64,000 bases of DNA from Candidatus Bathyarchaeia archaeon (GCA_038868075.1 JAWBXB010000002.1:73769-137768), one strand, 5' to 3'. Positions 34,423 to 39,663 are shown, counted from the first letter of the stretch. A program made the numbers and translations. Notes: a model not told the origin generated them from the letters alone.

Positions 34423-35934
34423 TTATTTCCTACCGAGTATTTTTCCAAATGTTATGATTATAATTAGCGCCAGTAGGGGTATAATTATTGGATACTCTGG
34501 AATTACACCTGCCCCCTCAATTACTATTGTTCTCATGCCTTGAGCGAAGGTGAAATAGAGATAGACTGCTTCATCGCCAGGAAACTCTCTATAATTATCT
34601 ATCTCAACATCATCAACCCTTATCTTCCAGCCATCATCAGCCCAAATTAATCTACTCAAAATCATCACCCTACAGAAGCCCACAGCCCCCTCAGGACTAG
34701 TAGCCTTAAAAGATATGAAAGGCCCCTCTTCAGGATTGAAATGAAAATCCGATATAGTTGAATTGCTTACAACAATCGCATTATACTCTATTCCATACCA
34801 TGTCCCAGCATAAAACAGTTTAACTGGAGCCATAAGCGGATACCTATCAACTATTTGACCATCAATATGGGGTGTGTCACCTATCCCATCCGCACCAGTC
34901 ACATTTTGATATGAACCACTGTATAGGTCAACTCCACGATAATTTTCCCAATAGTTTCCGCCGACGGGATAACCTTTATCAAAATAATTTTGATCTCCAT
35001 CCTCAATTATTACATCTGCACCATTTTTAAGGAAGCAGTTACCGCAGATAGTGTTATCTCTGGCTTGATATATGCGTATTCCGAAGGAATTCTCCTCTAT
35101 AATATTTGCCTCAAATATATTCAGAATAGATCCCTCATAAATGTCTATTCCGGCAAAACTATTCAGGGTAATATTGTTTCCAAAGATGGTATTAGATACC
35201 GCATAGGATAGTTCTATACCAGTGGCAAAGAGGGAAATAGAATTCCCAGTAACCTTATTGTCTGAGCAGGAAGTGATTACTATGCCTGTCGATAACATAG
35301 TTAAGTTACCCTCAATCCTATTCCAGGATATAATATTATTGTTGGAAGACGAGTCTAGAATTATGCCGCAAGTCGAAGTTTTAATAATATTTTGGGAGAT
35401 TAGATTATTCCCTGAATAATCGGTCAACTTTATTTCATAAAAGTTGCCCCTAAACACGTTATTGAATATATTATTATATGCCGAGCGGTAACCTATTAAA
35501 CCAACCTGATTCTCCTCAACCTCATTACCCGCTACGTTATTAAATGAACTATTCGATAGATAGATACCGAAGGCAAAACCCTTAACCTTCAGATTCTTAA
35601 CAGTTACGTTCTCTCTCCCACTAATATCTACTCCACGCGTATCAAACGGGGCGCTGGAACCCTGAATTGTGAACCCGCGGCCATCAATCACAATGTTATT
35701 CCTCTCAACAATGAGTCCATGATTAAATCCATTGACGGAAATATTACCCGTCAGAAAATATGTTATTTTGTCGGCTGTGGTTACTGGAGCTCCAGAAGGC
35801 TCTATACTGCCATCGCTCCTAATATAGATAGTGCCACTCCATGCTTCAGCGATGCTTGTCTTGAACTCTAGTCCTAAAATCATGATTACTAGTGGGAAGA
35901 GCAAGAGTGATAAGATAATACATCTTTTTAACAT
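34423..35934 (-). CDS. Secreted NosD/parallel beta-helix protein with PEF-CTERM-like sorting tail
   Basis: Signal peptide, repeated N..I..N...GI.L beta-helix turns, GGNYW..Y.G.D...DGIGDTP..D.YPL, and C-terminal VIPEYP plus TM helix plus GRK. Confidence 0.85.
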   Translation of the reverse strand: MLKRCIILSLLLFPLVIMILGLEFKTSIAEAWSGTIYIRSDGSIEPSGAPVTTADKITYFLTGNISVNGFNHGLIVERNNIVIDGRGFTIQGSSAPFDTRGVDISGRENVTVKNLKVKGFAFGIYLSNSSFNNVAGNEVEENQVGLIGYRSAYNNIFNNVFRGNFYEIKLTDYSGNNLISQNIIKTSTCGIILDSSSNNNIISWNRIEGNLTMLSTGIVITSCSDNKVTGNSISLFATGIELSYAVSNTIFGNNITLNSFAGIDIYEGSILNIFEANIIEENSFGIRIYQARDNTICGNCFLKNGADVIIEDGDQNYFDKGYPVGGNYWENYRGVDLYSGSYQNVTGADGIGDTPHIDGQIVDRYPLMAPVKLFYAGTWYGIEYNAIVVSNSTISDFHFNPEEGPFISFKATSPEGAVGFCRVMILSRLIWADDGWKIRVDDVEIDNYREFPGDEAVYLYFTFAQGMRTIVIEGAGVIPEYPIIIPLLALIIIITFGKILGRK

Positions 35935-36082
35935 ACCTTCTCCCCACCTTAATTTTAAAGGTAAGAGATCTACGCATTATGTTGGATCTTGATTTTAAAC
36001 CTTTTGCTCTCTTCTTAAAAATAGAGATAAATAGGACTCTAGATTAGGAGAACAATGGTGAGCCCAGTGGTCGTGTAATAGA

Positions 36083-37111
36083 ATGCTAGGTGTAATTGTA
36101 CCAGCAGAGAAAATAAAGAATCTTTTTTCATTACTCACTAGGCTGGAGAAGGCATTAAATGAGATTGACCATGCTGTAGTAATCGTAGGTAACAAGTCCC
36201 TAAAAATCATGATTGACGGGATGAATAAAGGTTTTATTCACCTACTTACAAGATCTAGGGGGCAGAGTGTAGCATCGGCTATAATTGATGGAATGAAATA
36301 TTGTGCTGATACTCTTAGTGCTGATATTATCGCCGTGATTAATGCTGAAGATGAAGTGGAGAAGCTACCATTAATGCTCAATAAGATTGAGGAGGGCTAC
36401 AATTTAGTGGTGGAAGCTTACACATTTATGAAGAAGGGACAGCCTTTTGGTCAAAAAATTAGAGCGCTAATTGGCGAAAGTATCAATTTGCTGATGAAAA
36501 TATTGCTTCCACGCGTCAGACATTCACCCATCATGTATGGAGAAACCTTCGCGATGAGGACTGAAGTAATTAAAGGTGTAGAAATGAAGCCAAGAGGCTC
36601 CAACATTTTACTGGGAATAATTGAGTATGGCAACTGGAATAAAGTCGCGGTAATTCCCTACATAATTGGGTATAACGTTGGAGAGAAGCCAAAAATTAAT
36701 GTTAGAGCAGCTCTAGGTTTCCTTTTTTCCCTACTATTAGTTTCACCGTTGATTCCAATTCTAATCGCGGGTATCTCTGGAATTATTGTTAACTTATTTA
36801 TACTTTGGCTGCTGCTTCACTTCATACCATTTATGGAATATTATATATCCTCAGTTATAGCGATTGAGATATCAGTAATTAATAATTTTATAATTTCAGA
36901 CCTTTTTCTTTGCAATAAGAGAATAGTTCCAAGAATAATGGGTTTAGTTATGTATCACGGTATTGTTGCAATAAGCATTATAACACAATATGGAACAGCT
37001 AACATACTCCATTATCTACTACATATTAATCCTATCACCTCACAATTTACAGGAATACTGCTAGGCTTCTTTATGACTTATCTGCTCAGCACAGAAAAAA
37101 TTTGGAGATAA
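36083..37111 (+). CDS. Degenerate GT2 (Dol-P-mannose synthase-like) domain fused to GtrA-like membrane domain
   Basis: VIVP, SAIIDG, GYNLVV and C-terminal AIEISVINNFIISDLF. The DxD position reads NAE. Confidence 0.7.
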   Translation: MLGVIVPAEKIKNLFSLLTRLEKALNEIDHAVVIVGNKSLKIMIDGMNKGFIHLLTRSRGQSVASAIIDGMKYCADTLSADIIAVINAEDEVEKLPLMLNKIEEGYNLVVEAYTFMKKGQPFGQKIRALIGESINLLMKILLPRVRHSPIMYGETFAMRTEVIKGVEMKPRGSNILLGIIEYGNWNKVAVIPYIIGYNVGEKPKINVRAALGFLFSLLLVSPLIPILIAGISGIIVNLFILWLLLHFIPFMEYYISSVIAIEISVINNFIISDLFLCNKRIVPRIMGLVMYHGIVAISIITQYGTANILHYLLHINPITSQFTGILLGFFMTYLLSTEKIWR

Positions 37112-37229
37112 TCAATTAGCAGCGTCCCCAAATCACCAATAAATTTATTACTGAAAACATAAATCTTTTCTTCTTATCTCCTTACAATAGTTTAATACGT
37201 TCAACTCAGATTCACTGGATCGGACTATA

Positions 37230-38258
37230 ATGATGAGACTACTAAATATTCTAGCGAGAATGATGAGAGGCAGAATCCTAAATATTATGCAACTATCTAA
37301 TCTAATAAAAATTCTATTTATTCTTTCTTTCACAACATCCTTTTTAATATTATATTTTTTGTATCCAGGATCTTATGAGAGAACATGGAAGGGTAGAATG
37401 TATTACCTCTTCTTTATATGGCTGATATCGCTTGAACTTGCGTTGAACTGGAAGAGAATCGATGTGAAGGTTCAGAGAATTATATCTAAGCGTTTCATAG
37501 CGTTAGCTATCGTAATGCTGCTTCCCATAACATACATTTTAATCGCAAATTTTTCCGGTCTAAACATGCTGATAATGGAGTTATCCCCAAAACATTATGG
37601 ATTAGATTGGTGGTCAATATTCATGCCCCTCACAATAGAATACCTCGTATTCACAGTACTCTCACCGCTAATGGTTATATTAGCTTATGGAACCAGTGGT
37701 CTAAGATATTTCATTCTTCCAATAACCCTAATAGGGGTTGTCGGCTTAATATTCCTCATAGATAACCTCTACCCCTTCGGAGAATTCACGCCATTCCAAA
37801 TAATAGTTCCCTCCGCGGCCATACTTGCATCAAACCTCTTAACCCTATTAGGCTATAGAACTAAACTCGAAGGACAAATTTACGGGACACCAGTTTTAAG
37901 GGTTCAAGGAGAGAAGGGTGAGGCATCCTTTGGCGTAGCTTGGCCATGCTCCGGCATAGACAGTCTCATAATATATTCAATTATAACGATACTATTCCTG
38001 AGAGATGAGGCGGCGACATGGAAGCGGAAAATAGCCTATTTTCTTATAGGCGCCATAATCACATACTTTATAAACATTTTAAGAATAACCAAAATATTTA
38101 TACTAGCAATAGAATACGGCGTCGCATCACTAGAGGTCCAGCGCTTCCACGACCATTACGGTCCATTATTATCTATAACTTGGATTATAACCTACCAGTT
38201 AATAATAATTGGAGTGCGGTCCATCTTAAGGAAAAAGCATGTTAATAAAGGCTTATAA
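37230..38258 (+). CDS. Archaeosortase/exosortase family transpeptidase
   Basis: Multi-TM protein with WPCSG (Cys), INILRI (Arg) and FHD (His) in the family order. Confidence 0.88.
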   Translation: MMRLLNILARMMRGRILNIMQLSNLIKILFILSFTTSFLILYFLYPGSYERTWKGRMYYLFFIWLISLELALNWKRIDVKVQRIISKRFIALAIVMLLPITYILIANFSGLNMLIMELSPKHYGLDWWSIFMPLTIEYLVFTVLSPLMVILAYGTSGLRYFILPITLIGVVGLIFLIDNLYPFGEFTPFQIIVPSAAILASNLLTLLGYRTKLEGQIYGTPVLRVQGEKGEASFGVAWPCSGIDSLIIYSIITILFLRDEAATWKRKIAYFLIGAIITYFINILRITKIFILAIEYGVASLEVQRFHDHYGPLLSITWIITYQLIIIGVRSILRKKHVNKGL

Positions 38259-38278
38259 GTTAAGAGATTAACATATTT

Positions 38279-39313
38279 TTGGGTGAAAGAATGAAATATA
38301 AAATGCTCATATTACTTTTGGCTCTATTTATGTTGGCAATTATTGTATCAGGAAAAAGTGTTCTGGGCATTAATAATAACGTAGAAGTTCCAACCAATCT
38401 CATAGAAAACGTCAGCGTTTCTGTTAATTGCACATCAGCTGAGCTTAGCGTCTTATGCACGGTATCCTCAAGTAATACGTCACTGGTACACTTCCCACCC
38501 CAAGTAGACATGAATAGGGATGAGCTGGTTAACGCTGCCGCTATTATAGCTAGTTTTTCGAGATTCACTTCTGGGCTACTCTTCACCTTTGATAATGTTG
38601 ACACCGAAACAGCCAAATCTCTTGCAGATGCCGTTAAGGGATCGTTAGAGGAGGCATTTGATACGATGTTTACATGGAATTCCACAGAGGTTACAGAAGA
38701 GGGATGCATTGTTACCTATATTAGCTCCGGAAAGGATGACTTACCCAAGTATTTAAGTTGGCTTATGGAGACATGTCTAGCCCCAGATTTAGGCGGCTTC
38801 ACGCTAACGTTTATTCCAGTAATCAATGAAGAAAATGCCTTTATTGAAATTAGCGCTATTAAGGAGGGCGGAGGATTCAACTGGACGTATTCTATGGGAG
38901 TAGGGTACTTTACCACTATGCCAACCGGAGCAGGCCCGCATGAAATAGATTTTCTAGACCTGCTCAATGTTGAGTCGCTTTCACCCTCGAAGTACGCATC
39001 CCAGAATGGTTGGTTCATATCATCAATGGTTATGCTTACTATTGTTTCTAGTGAAAATGTTTCCTATGTGTCCTCTGAGCCTGATACTGTAAATTCACTA
39101 ATCCGAAGAGGCTGGTACATTAACCCCATGACTCAGCCACCTGTACAATTGCAAGCATTATTCAGTTTTGCAGATAACCCAACGCCCATTACTGAGCTCT
39201 TATTCACCTTCAGTGGAATGGTTATACCAGAATTTCCCGCATCAATCTTAATAGCGGCATTGATATCAATAACCCTAGTTATAATTATCGCTAAAAGAAA
39301 ATTCCCCCATTAG
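38279..39313 (+). CDS. Surface protein with PEF-CTERM sorting signal
   Basis: N-terminal signal peptide and C-terminal VIPEFP, TM helix, KRK. Confidence 0.82.
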   Translation: MGERMKYKMLILLLALFMLAIIVSGKSVLGINNNVEVPTNLIENVSVSVNCTSAELSVLCTVSSSNTSLVHFPPQVDMNRDELVNAAAIIASFSRFTSGLLFTFDNVDTETAKSLADAVKGSLEEAFDTMFTWNSTEVTEEGCIVTYISSGKDDLPKYLSWLMETCLAPDLGGFTLTFIPVINEENAFIEISAIKEGGGFNWTYSMGVGYFTTMPTGAGPHEIDFLDLLNVESLSPSKYASQNGWFISSMVMLTIVSSENVSYVSSEPDTVNSLIRRGWYINPMTQPPVQLQALFSFADNPTPITELLFTFSGMVIPEFPASILIAALISITLVIIIAKRKFPH

Positions 39314-39336: not shown

Positions 39337-39663
39337 TTATGCAGGACTATAAATTTTCACATGCTTCCCGCTTGAAACATGATTGATTAAGCCTTGTCGA
39401 CATAGATCTTCTAGGAAGTCTTTTGCAATGCTTAGGCGTAGGTTAAAGCGTGAGGCAATCGTGTAGGGTGTTATAACCTTCATCTTCTGTATCTCTTTTA
39501 TAATCTTCTCATCTCTAGGATTGGGTGGAATTATTCCGGTAACCTTTTTCTCTACACGTGCAGTCTCTTTAGGTTTAGCCTCCTTCTTTCCCTCCTTCTT
39601 TTGAGCTTCTCTCATTAATGCCTTCTCGGCCTGCGATAATGTCAATTTCTTCTTTCCACCCAT
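39337..39663 (-). CDS. rps25e: 30S ribosomal protein S25e
   Basis: Basic N-terminus and KVITPYTIASRFNLRLSIAK..LEDL...GLI wHTH. Confidence 0.9.
   Translation of the reverse strand: MGGKKKLTLSQAEKALMREAQKKEGKKEAKPKETARVEKKVTGIIPPNPRDEKIIKEIQKMKVITPYTIASRFNLRLSIAKDFLEDLCRQGLINHVSSGKHVKIYSPA

Follow-up and report, generated by a model that had tools for sequence, protein, structure and literature searches.

We analysed a 64,000-nucleotide stretch of DNA (hereafter the window; C2:73769-137768) from a Candidatus Bathyarchaeia archaeon. The 1.58-Mb genome (G000; completeness 97.4%, contamination 0.95%) consists of 41 contigs, to which C numbers refer, and the labels on close homologues of its proteins read Bathyarchaeia or Bathyarchaeota. 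An earlier note on the window had described an archaeosortase locus of four open reading frames (ORFs), all of which we find at the coordinates claimed. These encode a NosD/right-handed beta-helix protein (BH503; 34423-35934, minus strand), a protein related to dolichol-phosphate (Dol-P) mannose synthase (the DPMS-like gene, called ‘GT2-GtrA’ in the earlier note; 36083-37111, plus strand), the archaeosortase (37230-38258, plus strand) and an orphan exported protein (U344; 38279-39313, plus strand). We propose, with a probability of roughly three in four, that the uncatalogued Bathyarchaeia archaeosortase and U344 form a conserved two-gene cassette in which the enzyme anchors a dedicated surface glycoprotein.

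The archaeosortase and its orphan neighbour

The archaeosortase is a 342-amino-acid protein that exceeds the cut-offs of two general superfamily models (TIGR04178, 54.3 bits against 23; PF09721, 54.4 bits against 25.7) and is the single superfamily match in the G000 genome. Cys240 (in WPCSGID), Arg285 (in NILRI) and His307 (in RFHDHYG) are invariant in an alignment of 24 sequences, comprising the G000 enzyme and 23 homologues at 44-68% identity, and represent putative catalytic residues. The archaeosortase models proposed as a check, together with this invariant triad, thus bear out the claim of a Cys/Arg/His archaeosortase.

Curated subfamily models were not reached. The top-scoring one, thaumarchaeosortase (TIGR04297), matches the enzyme over model positions 7-297 of 307 with 62.2 bits against a cut-off of 250; the second-best, ArtC (TIGR03762), gives 41.2 bits against 100. 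TIGR04297 is also the top-scoring curated subfamily for all 24 of the sortase homologues tested, each of which falls far below its cut-off (best E-value 9.7e-23). By these scores the enzyme is a true archaeosortase outside every curated subfamily, and its two nearest subfamilies are those tied to PEF-type signals (pairings of subfamily and signal are taken from NCBIfam model names, PMC5244752 and general knowledge). Since every subfamily model scores below its cut-off, the enzyme appears to belong to an uncatalogued Bathyarchaeia branch of archaeosortases. The family is large: a word-based search returned 714 proteins, and a scan of one genome per species identified a sortase relative in 259 genomes, the best 80 of which are nearly all labelled Bathyarchaeia or Bathyarchaeota. 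No solved structure among the PDB sequences matches the family profile.

A domain distantly resembling archaeosortases (E 1e-4 to 1e-8) is also present in ORFs of 675-714 amino acids from the related genomes G006, G029, G037, G038, G039, G043 and G057. Other genera of the same family encode small sortase-like proteins of 176-204 amino acids. Judged from their sequences, both groups look like further uncatalogued sortase forms in the order.

U344 follows the archaeosortase on the same strand. Its likely start is the ATG at 38291 (340 amino acids), 32 nucleotides past the sortase stop codon, as indicated by the family alignment and by a Shine-Dalgarno-like GGTGA motif (38282-38286) that lies 24 nucleotides after the sortase stop and 4 nucleotides before the ATG. 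This spacing and the GGTGA motif are consistent with expression coupled to that of the sortase, and the two genes are probably co-transcribed. The protein ends in MVIPEFP-ASILIAALISITLVIIIA-KRKFPH; its sorting tail (39221-39310, plus strand) comprises VIPEFP, an 18-residue hydrophobic helix and KRKFPH.

U344 matches no Pfam or NCBIfam family, and a search of PDB sequences with its profile came back empty. A word search identified relatives in 36 clusters, only 72 clusters at 50% identity emerged when 1.84 billion representatives were searched exhaustively with a profile, and family members are named solely ‘hypothetical protein’. The earlier note had recognised no family for this protein, and these searches agree.

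The family alignment divides U344 into a signal peptide, some 280 residues of ectodomain and the tail. Cys51 and Cys166 are invariant, and four N-glycosylation sequons are widely kept (N50 in 33/36 relatives, N105 in 28/36, N258 in 27/36 and N134 in 25/36). The tail follows the consensus TFSG-x-[VI]-[IV]-P-E-F, then a helix, then Lys or Arg. Its upstream TFSG is nearly invariant, Pro is present in 30/36 relatives and Phe or Tyr in 31/36, and Glu318 is found in 36/36; the corresponding Glu is also shared by the four other tails of G000 described below.

An AlphaFold2 model of U344 made with the family alignment (predicted local distance difference test 88.8, predicted TM-score 0.81) has a mixed alpha/beta ectodomain. 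A Foldseek search of PDB and BFVD with this model returned no TM-score above 0.25. We rejected the Fenna-Matthews-Olson protein, inter-alpha-inhibitor heavy chain, Ost1 and GFP as homologues (TM-score ≤ 0.25). The model and these searches suggest that U344 is a confidently folding orphan for which the libraries covered (PDB and BFVD for structures) contain no relative in structure or sequence.

In Pfam scans, longer relatives of U344 showed only Ig-like or CarboxypepD_reg surface domains in one case and a Peptidase_C39 fragment in another, and these gave no clue to function. Distant relatives (40-43% identity; loci L041-L044) do not adjoin any sortase; they have a Thioredoxin_9 gene 2 nucleotides downstream and a sugar-phosphate nucleotidyltransferase gene upstream. 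The thioredoxin-like neighbour would be consistent with a disulfide bond between Cys51 and Cys166.

Sorting tails and the sortase-U344 pair in related genomes

Matching VIPE[FY]P-transmembrane helix-basic tails had been reported for BH503 and U344, and both are present. BH503 ends in GVIPEYP-IIIPLLALIIIITFG-KILGRK (sorting tail VIPEYP-IIIPLLALIIIITFG-KILGRK at 34426-34509, minus strand). Taken in isolation, the tails stay under every curated CTERM cut-off. The PEF-CTERM model (TIGR03024) gives 13.3 bits for BH503 and 13.2 bits for U344 against a cut-off of 23. PEFG-CTERM (TIGR04296), the top-scoring curated tail model for U344, gives it 14.9 bits against a cut-off of 25 and does not match BH503. 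None of the 36 U344-family tails, nor the four other tails of G000, has Gly after PEF; in its place stands Thr, Ala, Pro, Asn or Ser. The PEF-CTERM assignment made in the earlier note therefore stands in part: the curated subfamilies nearest the sortase are PEF-linked, whereas the sortase and the tails score below all PEF and PEFG cut-offs.

Among all six-frame ORFs of G000, a regular expression for [VI][IV]PE[FY] tails returned four. A custom profile based on U344-family and beta-helix-protein tails returned five (47.6 bits for U344, 27.6 bits for BH503, and 39.5, 31.5 and 24.0 bits), and the next-best match scores 8 bits. The tail on contig C4 was caught by the profile and missed by the regular expression because its basic stretch is longer than the pattern allowed. 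A genome-wide count, which had been suggested as a check, thus yields five tails that stand clear of the background (24-48 bits against 8 or less).

Besides U344 and BH503, the tail-bearing proteins are a beta-helix fragment at the end of C9 (VIPEFP tail, preceded by DUF7743), a NosD beta-helix protein of 355 amino acids on C18 (IVPEFS tail) and a propeller-like protein of 460 amino acids on C4 (NVIPEYS tail). With three further tail proteins on other contigs, the locus is not ‘self-contained’ as had been claimed. The five tails are carried by proteins of three unrelated folds (the beta-helix, a propeller-like fold and that of U344), and two of them lie within 3.5 kb of the only sortase gene (chance probability about 2e-4). 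All five proteins contain N-glycosylation sequons at 1.1-2.0 per 100 amino acids (genome median 0.33, 95th percentile 1.16), a density in keeping with extracellular glycoproteins. A C-terminal helix followed by basic residues is found in 48 ORFs of G000, 43 of which lack a VIPE[FY]-type motif. We also observed six large ORFs (647-880 amino acids; on C7, C15, C31, C35, C33 and C6) that have a helix and a basic end without VIPEF.

We compared 61 genomes (G000 and others of its genus, family and order) using the sortase, U344, the DPMS-like protein and the tail profile as queries; a tail was counted in a relative when the profile matched at E ≤ 1e-4 in an ORF of at least 100 amino acids. Close orthologues of the sortase are present in 12 of the 23 genomes of the genus (G000 included) and in several other families of the order, and none was found in other genera of the family. 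Tails and sortase occur together: 19 genomes encode both, 4 the sortase only, 4 tails only and 34 neither (Fisher p = 1.8e-8). Likewise, an intact U344 is found in 15 genomes, 13 of which encode the sortase (p = 1.2e-5). No U344 match below E 1e-30 was found in 9 of the 22 congeneric genomes, and U344 is absent from all the family's other genera.

The gene immediately after the sortase, in the same orientation, is U344 in G003, G006, G008, G011, G015, G021, G022 and GCA_030055465.1. The genes that flank the pair vary, with phosphate-transport neighbours in GCA_030055465.1. Exactly one tail, that of U344, was counted in G001, G008, G011, G017, G021 and G022. Judged from these genomes, the system within the genus is essentially an enzyme plus one dedicated cargo, and the five tails of G000 would represent an expansion. 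Tail counts in other families of the order range from 7 to 18 (G037, G045, G052 and G060).

U344 decays in some relatives. The 100% complete genome G002 has no sortase, and its U344 is a frameshift-split pseudogene that has lost the basic cluster (locus L034, 4214-4874, on contig C18 of G002). The neighbours of the pseudogene, an integrase fragment and a PIN-domain toxin-antitoxin pair, hint at arrival of the cassette on a mobile element. U344 is reduced to a 52-amino-acid tail remnant in G007. A more ambitious proposal, which we offer tentatively and regard as rather doubtful, is that the sortase-U344 pair is a horizontally mobile, self-sufficient surface-decoration cassette with a putative new-fold cargo. 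Such a cassette would be gained and lost by close Bathyarchaeia relatives and, once established, could draw in resident surface proteins as they acquire the VIPEF tail, as the five tails of G000 would exemplify.

A maximum-likelihood tree places all 8 cassette-bearing sortases in a single 11-member clade (support 100/98). The other three members comprise two loci cut by contig ends and that of G017, which encodes U344 elsewhere. The sortase phylogeny called for in the earlier note thus groups the cassette-bearing enzymes in one supported clade and, on this topology, the cassette is of single origin. Among the best 80 sortase loci from different species, a U344 or tail ORF lies within 5 kb in the closest clade only. 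In the larger sister clade, 62 of 66 loci (L062-L129) have the sortase adjoining genes for a GINS-like protein and the small subunit of primase, in a head-to-tail-opposed arrangement, with L44e, aIF2-alpha and often MCM on the other side. A membrane protein of about 565 amino acids with many helices is found about 1.9 kb from the sortase in 29 loci of this clade. The conserved neighbours of the wider sortase family are replication and translation genes, with no cargo or glycosylation genes among them. To judge by these gene neighbourhoods, the sister-clade context is stable, housekeeping and cargo-free, which is surprising for a surface-sorting enzyme.

Several observations weigh against a sortase dedicated to these tails. 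Four genomes have tails but no detected close sortase. Three of these come with caveats: completeness is 85% in G014, 69% in G056 and 76% in G043, the last of which also encodes a distant sortase-like ORF of 694 amino acids. No caveat of this kind applies to the fourth, G041. In G017 the sortase and U344 are on separate contigs, and the Pro of the U344 motif is replaced by Ser in 5/36 relatives and by Gln in 1/36. The tails fall under all CTERM cut-offs and the sortase under all subfamily cut-offs, so the specificity of this enzyme for these tails is drawn from co-occurrence only. In addition, the lipid route used by Haloferax is not evident among the G000 genes, as described below.

These failures of the curated CTERM models, and the replaced Pro in 6/36 U344 relatives, would be expected if the tails were plain membrane anchors that share a motif by descent or chance and the sortase acted elsewhere. 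We consider this highly improbable. The same motif is present on three unrelated folds, its Glu never varies across 36 U344 relatives or the four other tails, and 43 other helix-plus-basic C-termini of the genome do without the motif. Moreover, the presence of the tails follows that of the sortase (p = 1.8e-8), and U344 has decayed where the enzyme is missing.

The distribution of U344 also bears on the suggestion that it is an S-layer or other major, essential envelope protein of the lineage. Predicted export and glycosylation, a tail like that of the Haloferax S-layer protein, a dedicated sortase and the uncharacterised state of Bathyarchaeia envelopes (PMC5744192) would fit this suggestion. 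However, about half of the 22 congeners, including several that are 93-100% complete, lack the sortase and an intact U344, as do all other genera of the family, and U344 is a pseudogene in G002. The family is also tiny (72 clusters at 50% identity), and the protein is short for an S-layer protein. Moreover, the genome encodes larger helix-anchored proteins without the motif; the six ORFs of 647-880 amino acids noted above are better candidates for main envelope proteins, as far as their sequences can tell. The patchy distribution and decay of U344 make a main envelope role quite improbable, and this part of the earlier note is not supported.

The flanking beta-helix and DPMS-like genes

BH503 (503 amino acids) matches PF05048 (100.8 bits) and PF13229 (67.3 bits). 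It begins with a signal-like N-terminus, MLKRC-IILSLLLFPLVIMILGL-...SIAEA, and contains 7 N-glycosylation sequons, or 1.39 per 100 amino acids against the genome median of 0.33. BH503 is predicted to be exported and is likely a second cargo of the sortase, alongside U344. A BH503 query of 26 of the 61 genomes found no orthologue next to the sortase in the 25 relatives.

A BH503 paralogue of 772 amino acids is encoded on C38 (383-2699, minus strand). The two proteins have a common N-terminus (signal peptide and first beta-helix turns), after which the paralogue runs on into a region resembling metallophosphoesterases and lacks a sorting tail. From this pair of sequences, the BH503 leader and cap appear as a module that is reused on different proteins.

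The DPMS-like protein (342 amino acids) has the full-length architecture of a glycosyltransferase-A (GT-A) domain followed by a GtrA-like membrane domain. Its residues 3-341 align with residues 26-372 of the Pyrococcus furiosus Dol-P-Man synthase (PfDPMS; 5MLZ_A, E 3e-24). The membrane domain is well kept (PF04138, 59 bits; invariant Gly, Asn and Ser positions), and PF04138 is the sole Pfam match, with no GT2 model at E ≤ 1.

The catalytic residues of DPMS and GtrB proteins are largely absent, and the DADLQH motif reads NAE--D. Relative to the functional residues and roles described for PfDPMS (PMC5526996), Tyr10 (donor ribose contact) and Gln93 (metal coordination) are deleted. Asp39 (guanine base binding), Asp89 (mannosyl contact), Lys178 (mannosyl contact) and Arg202 (GDP alpha-phosphate binding) are all replaced by Asn. 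Substitutions are also found at Glu12 (acceptor-loop lock; Lys), His94 (mannosyl contact; Asp), Arg117 (mannose and Dol-P positioning; Thr), Ser135 (Dol-P phosphate docking; Gly) and Phe177 (donor-pocket gate; Ser). Arg131 (Dol-P docking aid) and Lys208 (acceptor-loop contact) are kept, and Asp91 (metal coordination) is conserved as Glu. The nearest homologues (30-35% identity) retain PTYNE, DDNSPD, DADLQHPPE and SGFF and match GT2 models. The DPMS-like protein is probably not a working glycosyltransferase.

What the earlier note called GT2 is thus a degenerate DPMS-like domain that no GT2 model matches. A large protein collection holds only one near-identical sequence and five homologues at 25-35% identity. 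The GtrA-like domain of PfDPMS has been proposed to translocate its product, a moonlighting role (PMC12992685); by analogy, a possible role of the degenerate homologue is that of a stand-alone flippase for a lipid-linked sugar.

The relatives place both genes outside the conserved unit. No counterpart of the DPMS-like gene lies next to the sortase in the 60 relatives, and its best relatives in the compared genomes are 28-30% identical and located elsewhere. G006 has the synteny of the window, in the order cyclophilin-like gene, sortase, U344, ribosomal protein S25e, radical-SAM gene, TrmB-like gene and malate dehydrogenase. Its cyclophilin-like gene and sortase are about 120 bp apart, and BH503 is absent from this site. 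The window has the same cyclophilin-like gene (PF04126; 34033-34419) and S25e (39337-39663, minus strand) as outer flanks, and since G006 keeps this order without the two intervening genes, BH503 and the DPMS-like gene represent a 2.8-kb addition in G000. By this comparison, both are G000-specific insertions between the cyclophilin-like gene and the cassette, and the DPMS-like gene is linked to the sortase by position in G000 alone. S25e adjoins the cyclophilin-like gene in G002 with no cassette between them, and the cassette lies away from the S25e/radical-SAM region in G008, G011, G021 and G022. A DNA alignment of the region upstream of the sortase from three genomes was too divergent to place the borders of the insertion.

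The earlier note treated all four genes as one system. On such a reading, they would form a self-contained, operon-like unit with a glycosyltransferase that shares a transcript with the sortase and glycosylates both flanking cargos. In its favour, the genes adjoin one another, 118 bp separate the DPMS-like gene from the sortase on their common strand, and the cargo proteins are rich in sequons. We nevertheless regard this arrangement as improbable. None of the relatives examined has BH503 or the DPMS-like gene next to the sortase, only the sortase and U344 being conserved there, and three further cargo genes lie elsewhere in G000. The glycosyltransferase domain matches no GT2 model and lacks Asp39, Asp89, Gln93, Arg117, Ser135, Lys178 and Arg202; with most catalytic residues of its family gone, the DPMS-like protein provides no clear link to glycosylation. 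The 118-bp gap is A/T-rich, with a TATA-like TTTAATA and no Shine-Dalgarno-like motif before the sortase, features in keeping with a separate sortase promoter.

Proposed mechanism and comparison with known systems

We favour the two-gene cassette and suggest the following mechanism. U344 would be exported via its N-terminal signal peptide, N-glycosylated at the conserved sequons, and held in the membrane by its C-terminal helix. The sortase would then recognise [VI][IV]PE[FY] at the outer end of the helix, and Cys240, helped by Arg285 and His307, would cleave at the motif through a Cys240 thioester and hand U344 on to another acceptor (a lipid in Haloferax). The same sortase probably also serves the four other tail proteins of G000, three of the NosD beta-helix type and one propeller-like. 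We infer Sec export, N-glycosylation, motif recognition, thioester cleavage and anchor transfer from the Haloferax ArtA system.

The nature of the acceptor is less clear-cut. ArtA is, to our knowledge, the only archaeosortase that has been studied experimentally. We found no phosphatidylserine decarboxylase (PssD) homologue in G000, in a search restricted to one Pfam family (PF02666) and a genome that is 97% complete and not closed; the same search detected homologues in Haloferax, Methanosarcina and Methanocaldococcus. As PssA and PssD are both required for ArtA-dependent lipidation and processing in Haloferax (PMC7157517), this result would suit a sortase that cleaves the tails without lipid-anchoring, either releasing the proteins or transferring them to a glycan or protein acceptor. 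On the other side, only one family was searched in an unclosed genome, and other amine-lipid routes may exist. We consider such a non-lipid outcome unlikely.

Anchoring of U344 by its neighbouring sortase would matter in several ways. Bathyarchaeia are a very abundant uncultured group of sediments and soils, and we know of no experimental work on their cell envelope. The sortase subfamily and the [VI][IV]PE[FY]-helix-Lys/Arg motif, both missed by curated models, could make surface proteomes in this group predictable. With one enzyme and one cargo, the minimal pair would be as simple a system as possible in which to test an archaeosortase beyond ArtA, and U344 is itself a predicted, confidently folding orphan surface protein. 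The locus also carries a lesson: adjoining ‘glycosylation’ and beta-helix genes need comparison with relatives before they are read as parts of a system.

Thaumarchaeosortase with PEFG-CTERM, found in Nitrososphaeria, is the nearest curated system for both the sortase and the U344 tail. The tails share P-E-F at the start of the C-terminal helix, with basic residues after it. The systems differ in score (62 against 250 bits for the sortase, 14.9 against 25 for the tail), in the lack of Gly after PEF, in the host class, which is Bathyarchaeia here, and in the single adjacent, dedicated cargo of this clade.

ArtC with PEF-CTERM, a predicted system of Euryarchaeota, provides the second-best sortase model and a PEF-type motif. 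We know of no experimental study of ArtC. The sortase and tails described here fall below the corresponding cut-offs (41 against 100 bits for the sortase, 13 against 23 for the tails). ArtC and PEF-CTERM have been paired with several surface proteins per genome (PMC5244752), a feature shared with the tails of G000.

Haloferax volcanii ArtA, which acts on PGF-CTERM proteins, is the mechanistic template for our proposal. ArtA-dependent processing removes the helix at the PGF motif, and the S-layer glycoprotein is lipid-modified (PMC5744192, PMC7157517). The G000 system has PEF in place of PGF. ArtA has many substrates, including an essential S-layer protein, and depends on PssA and PssD, the second of which has no counterpart found in G000.

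Bacterial XrtG with Firmicu-CTERM is a dedicated exosortase cassette that has one adjacent target and is tied to a GT2 polysaccharide synthase. The likeness lies in a sortase-family enzyme and a single tail-bearing partner that are kept and moved as a unit. XrtG cassettes differ in being bacterial and in their tail, while the partner here is an orphan globular glycoprotein, by prediction, and the glycosyltransferase-like neighbour is degenerate and not conserved. For the DPMS-like gene only, the comparison is with the type-III enzyme PfDPMS (5MLZ), which likewise joins a GT-A domain to a GtrA-like four-helix membrane domain and from which it differs in that most donor- and acceptor-binding residues are replaced. 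Set beside these systems, and on the strength of its genes, the locus belongs to a known kind of protein-anchoring system, within which it forms a branch that is new and uncatalogued.

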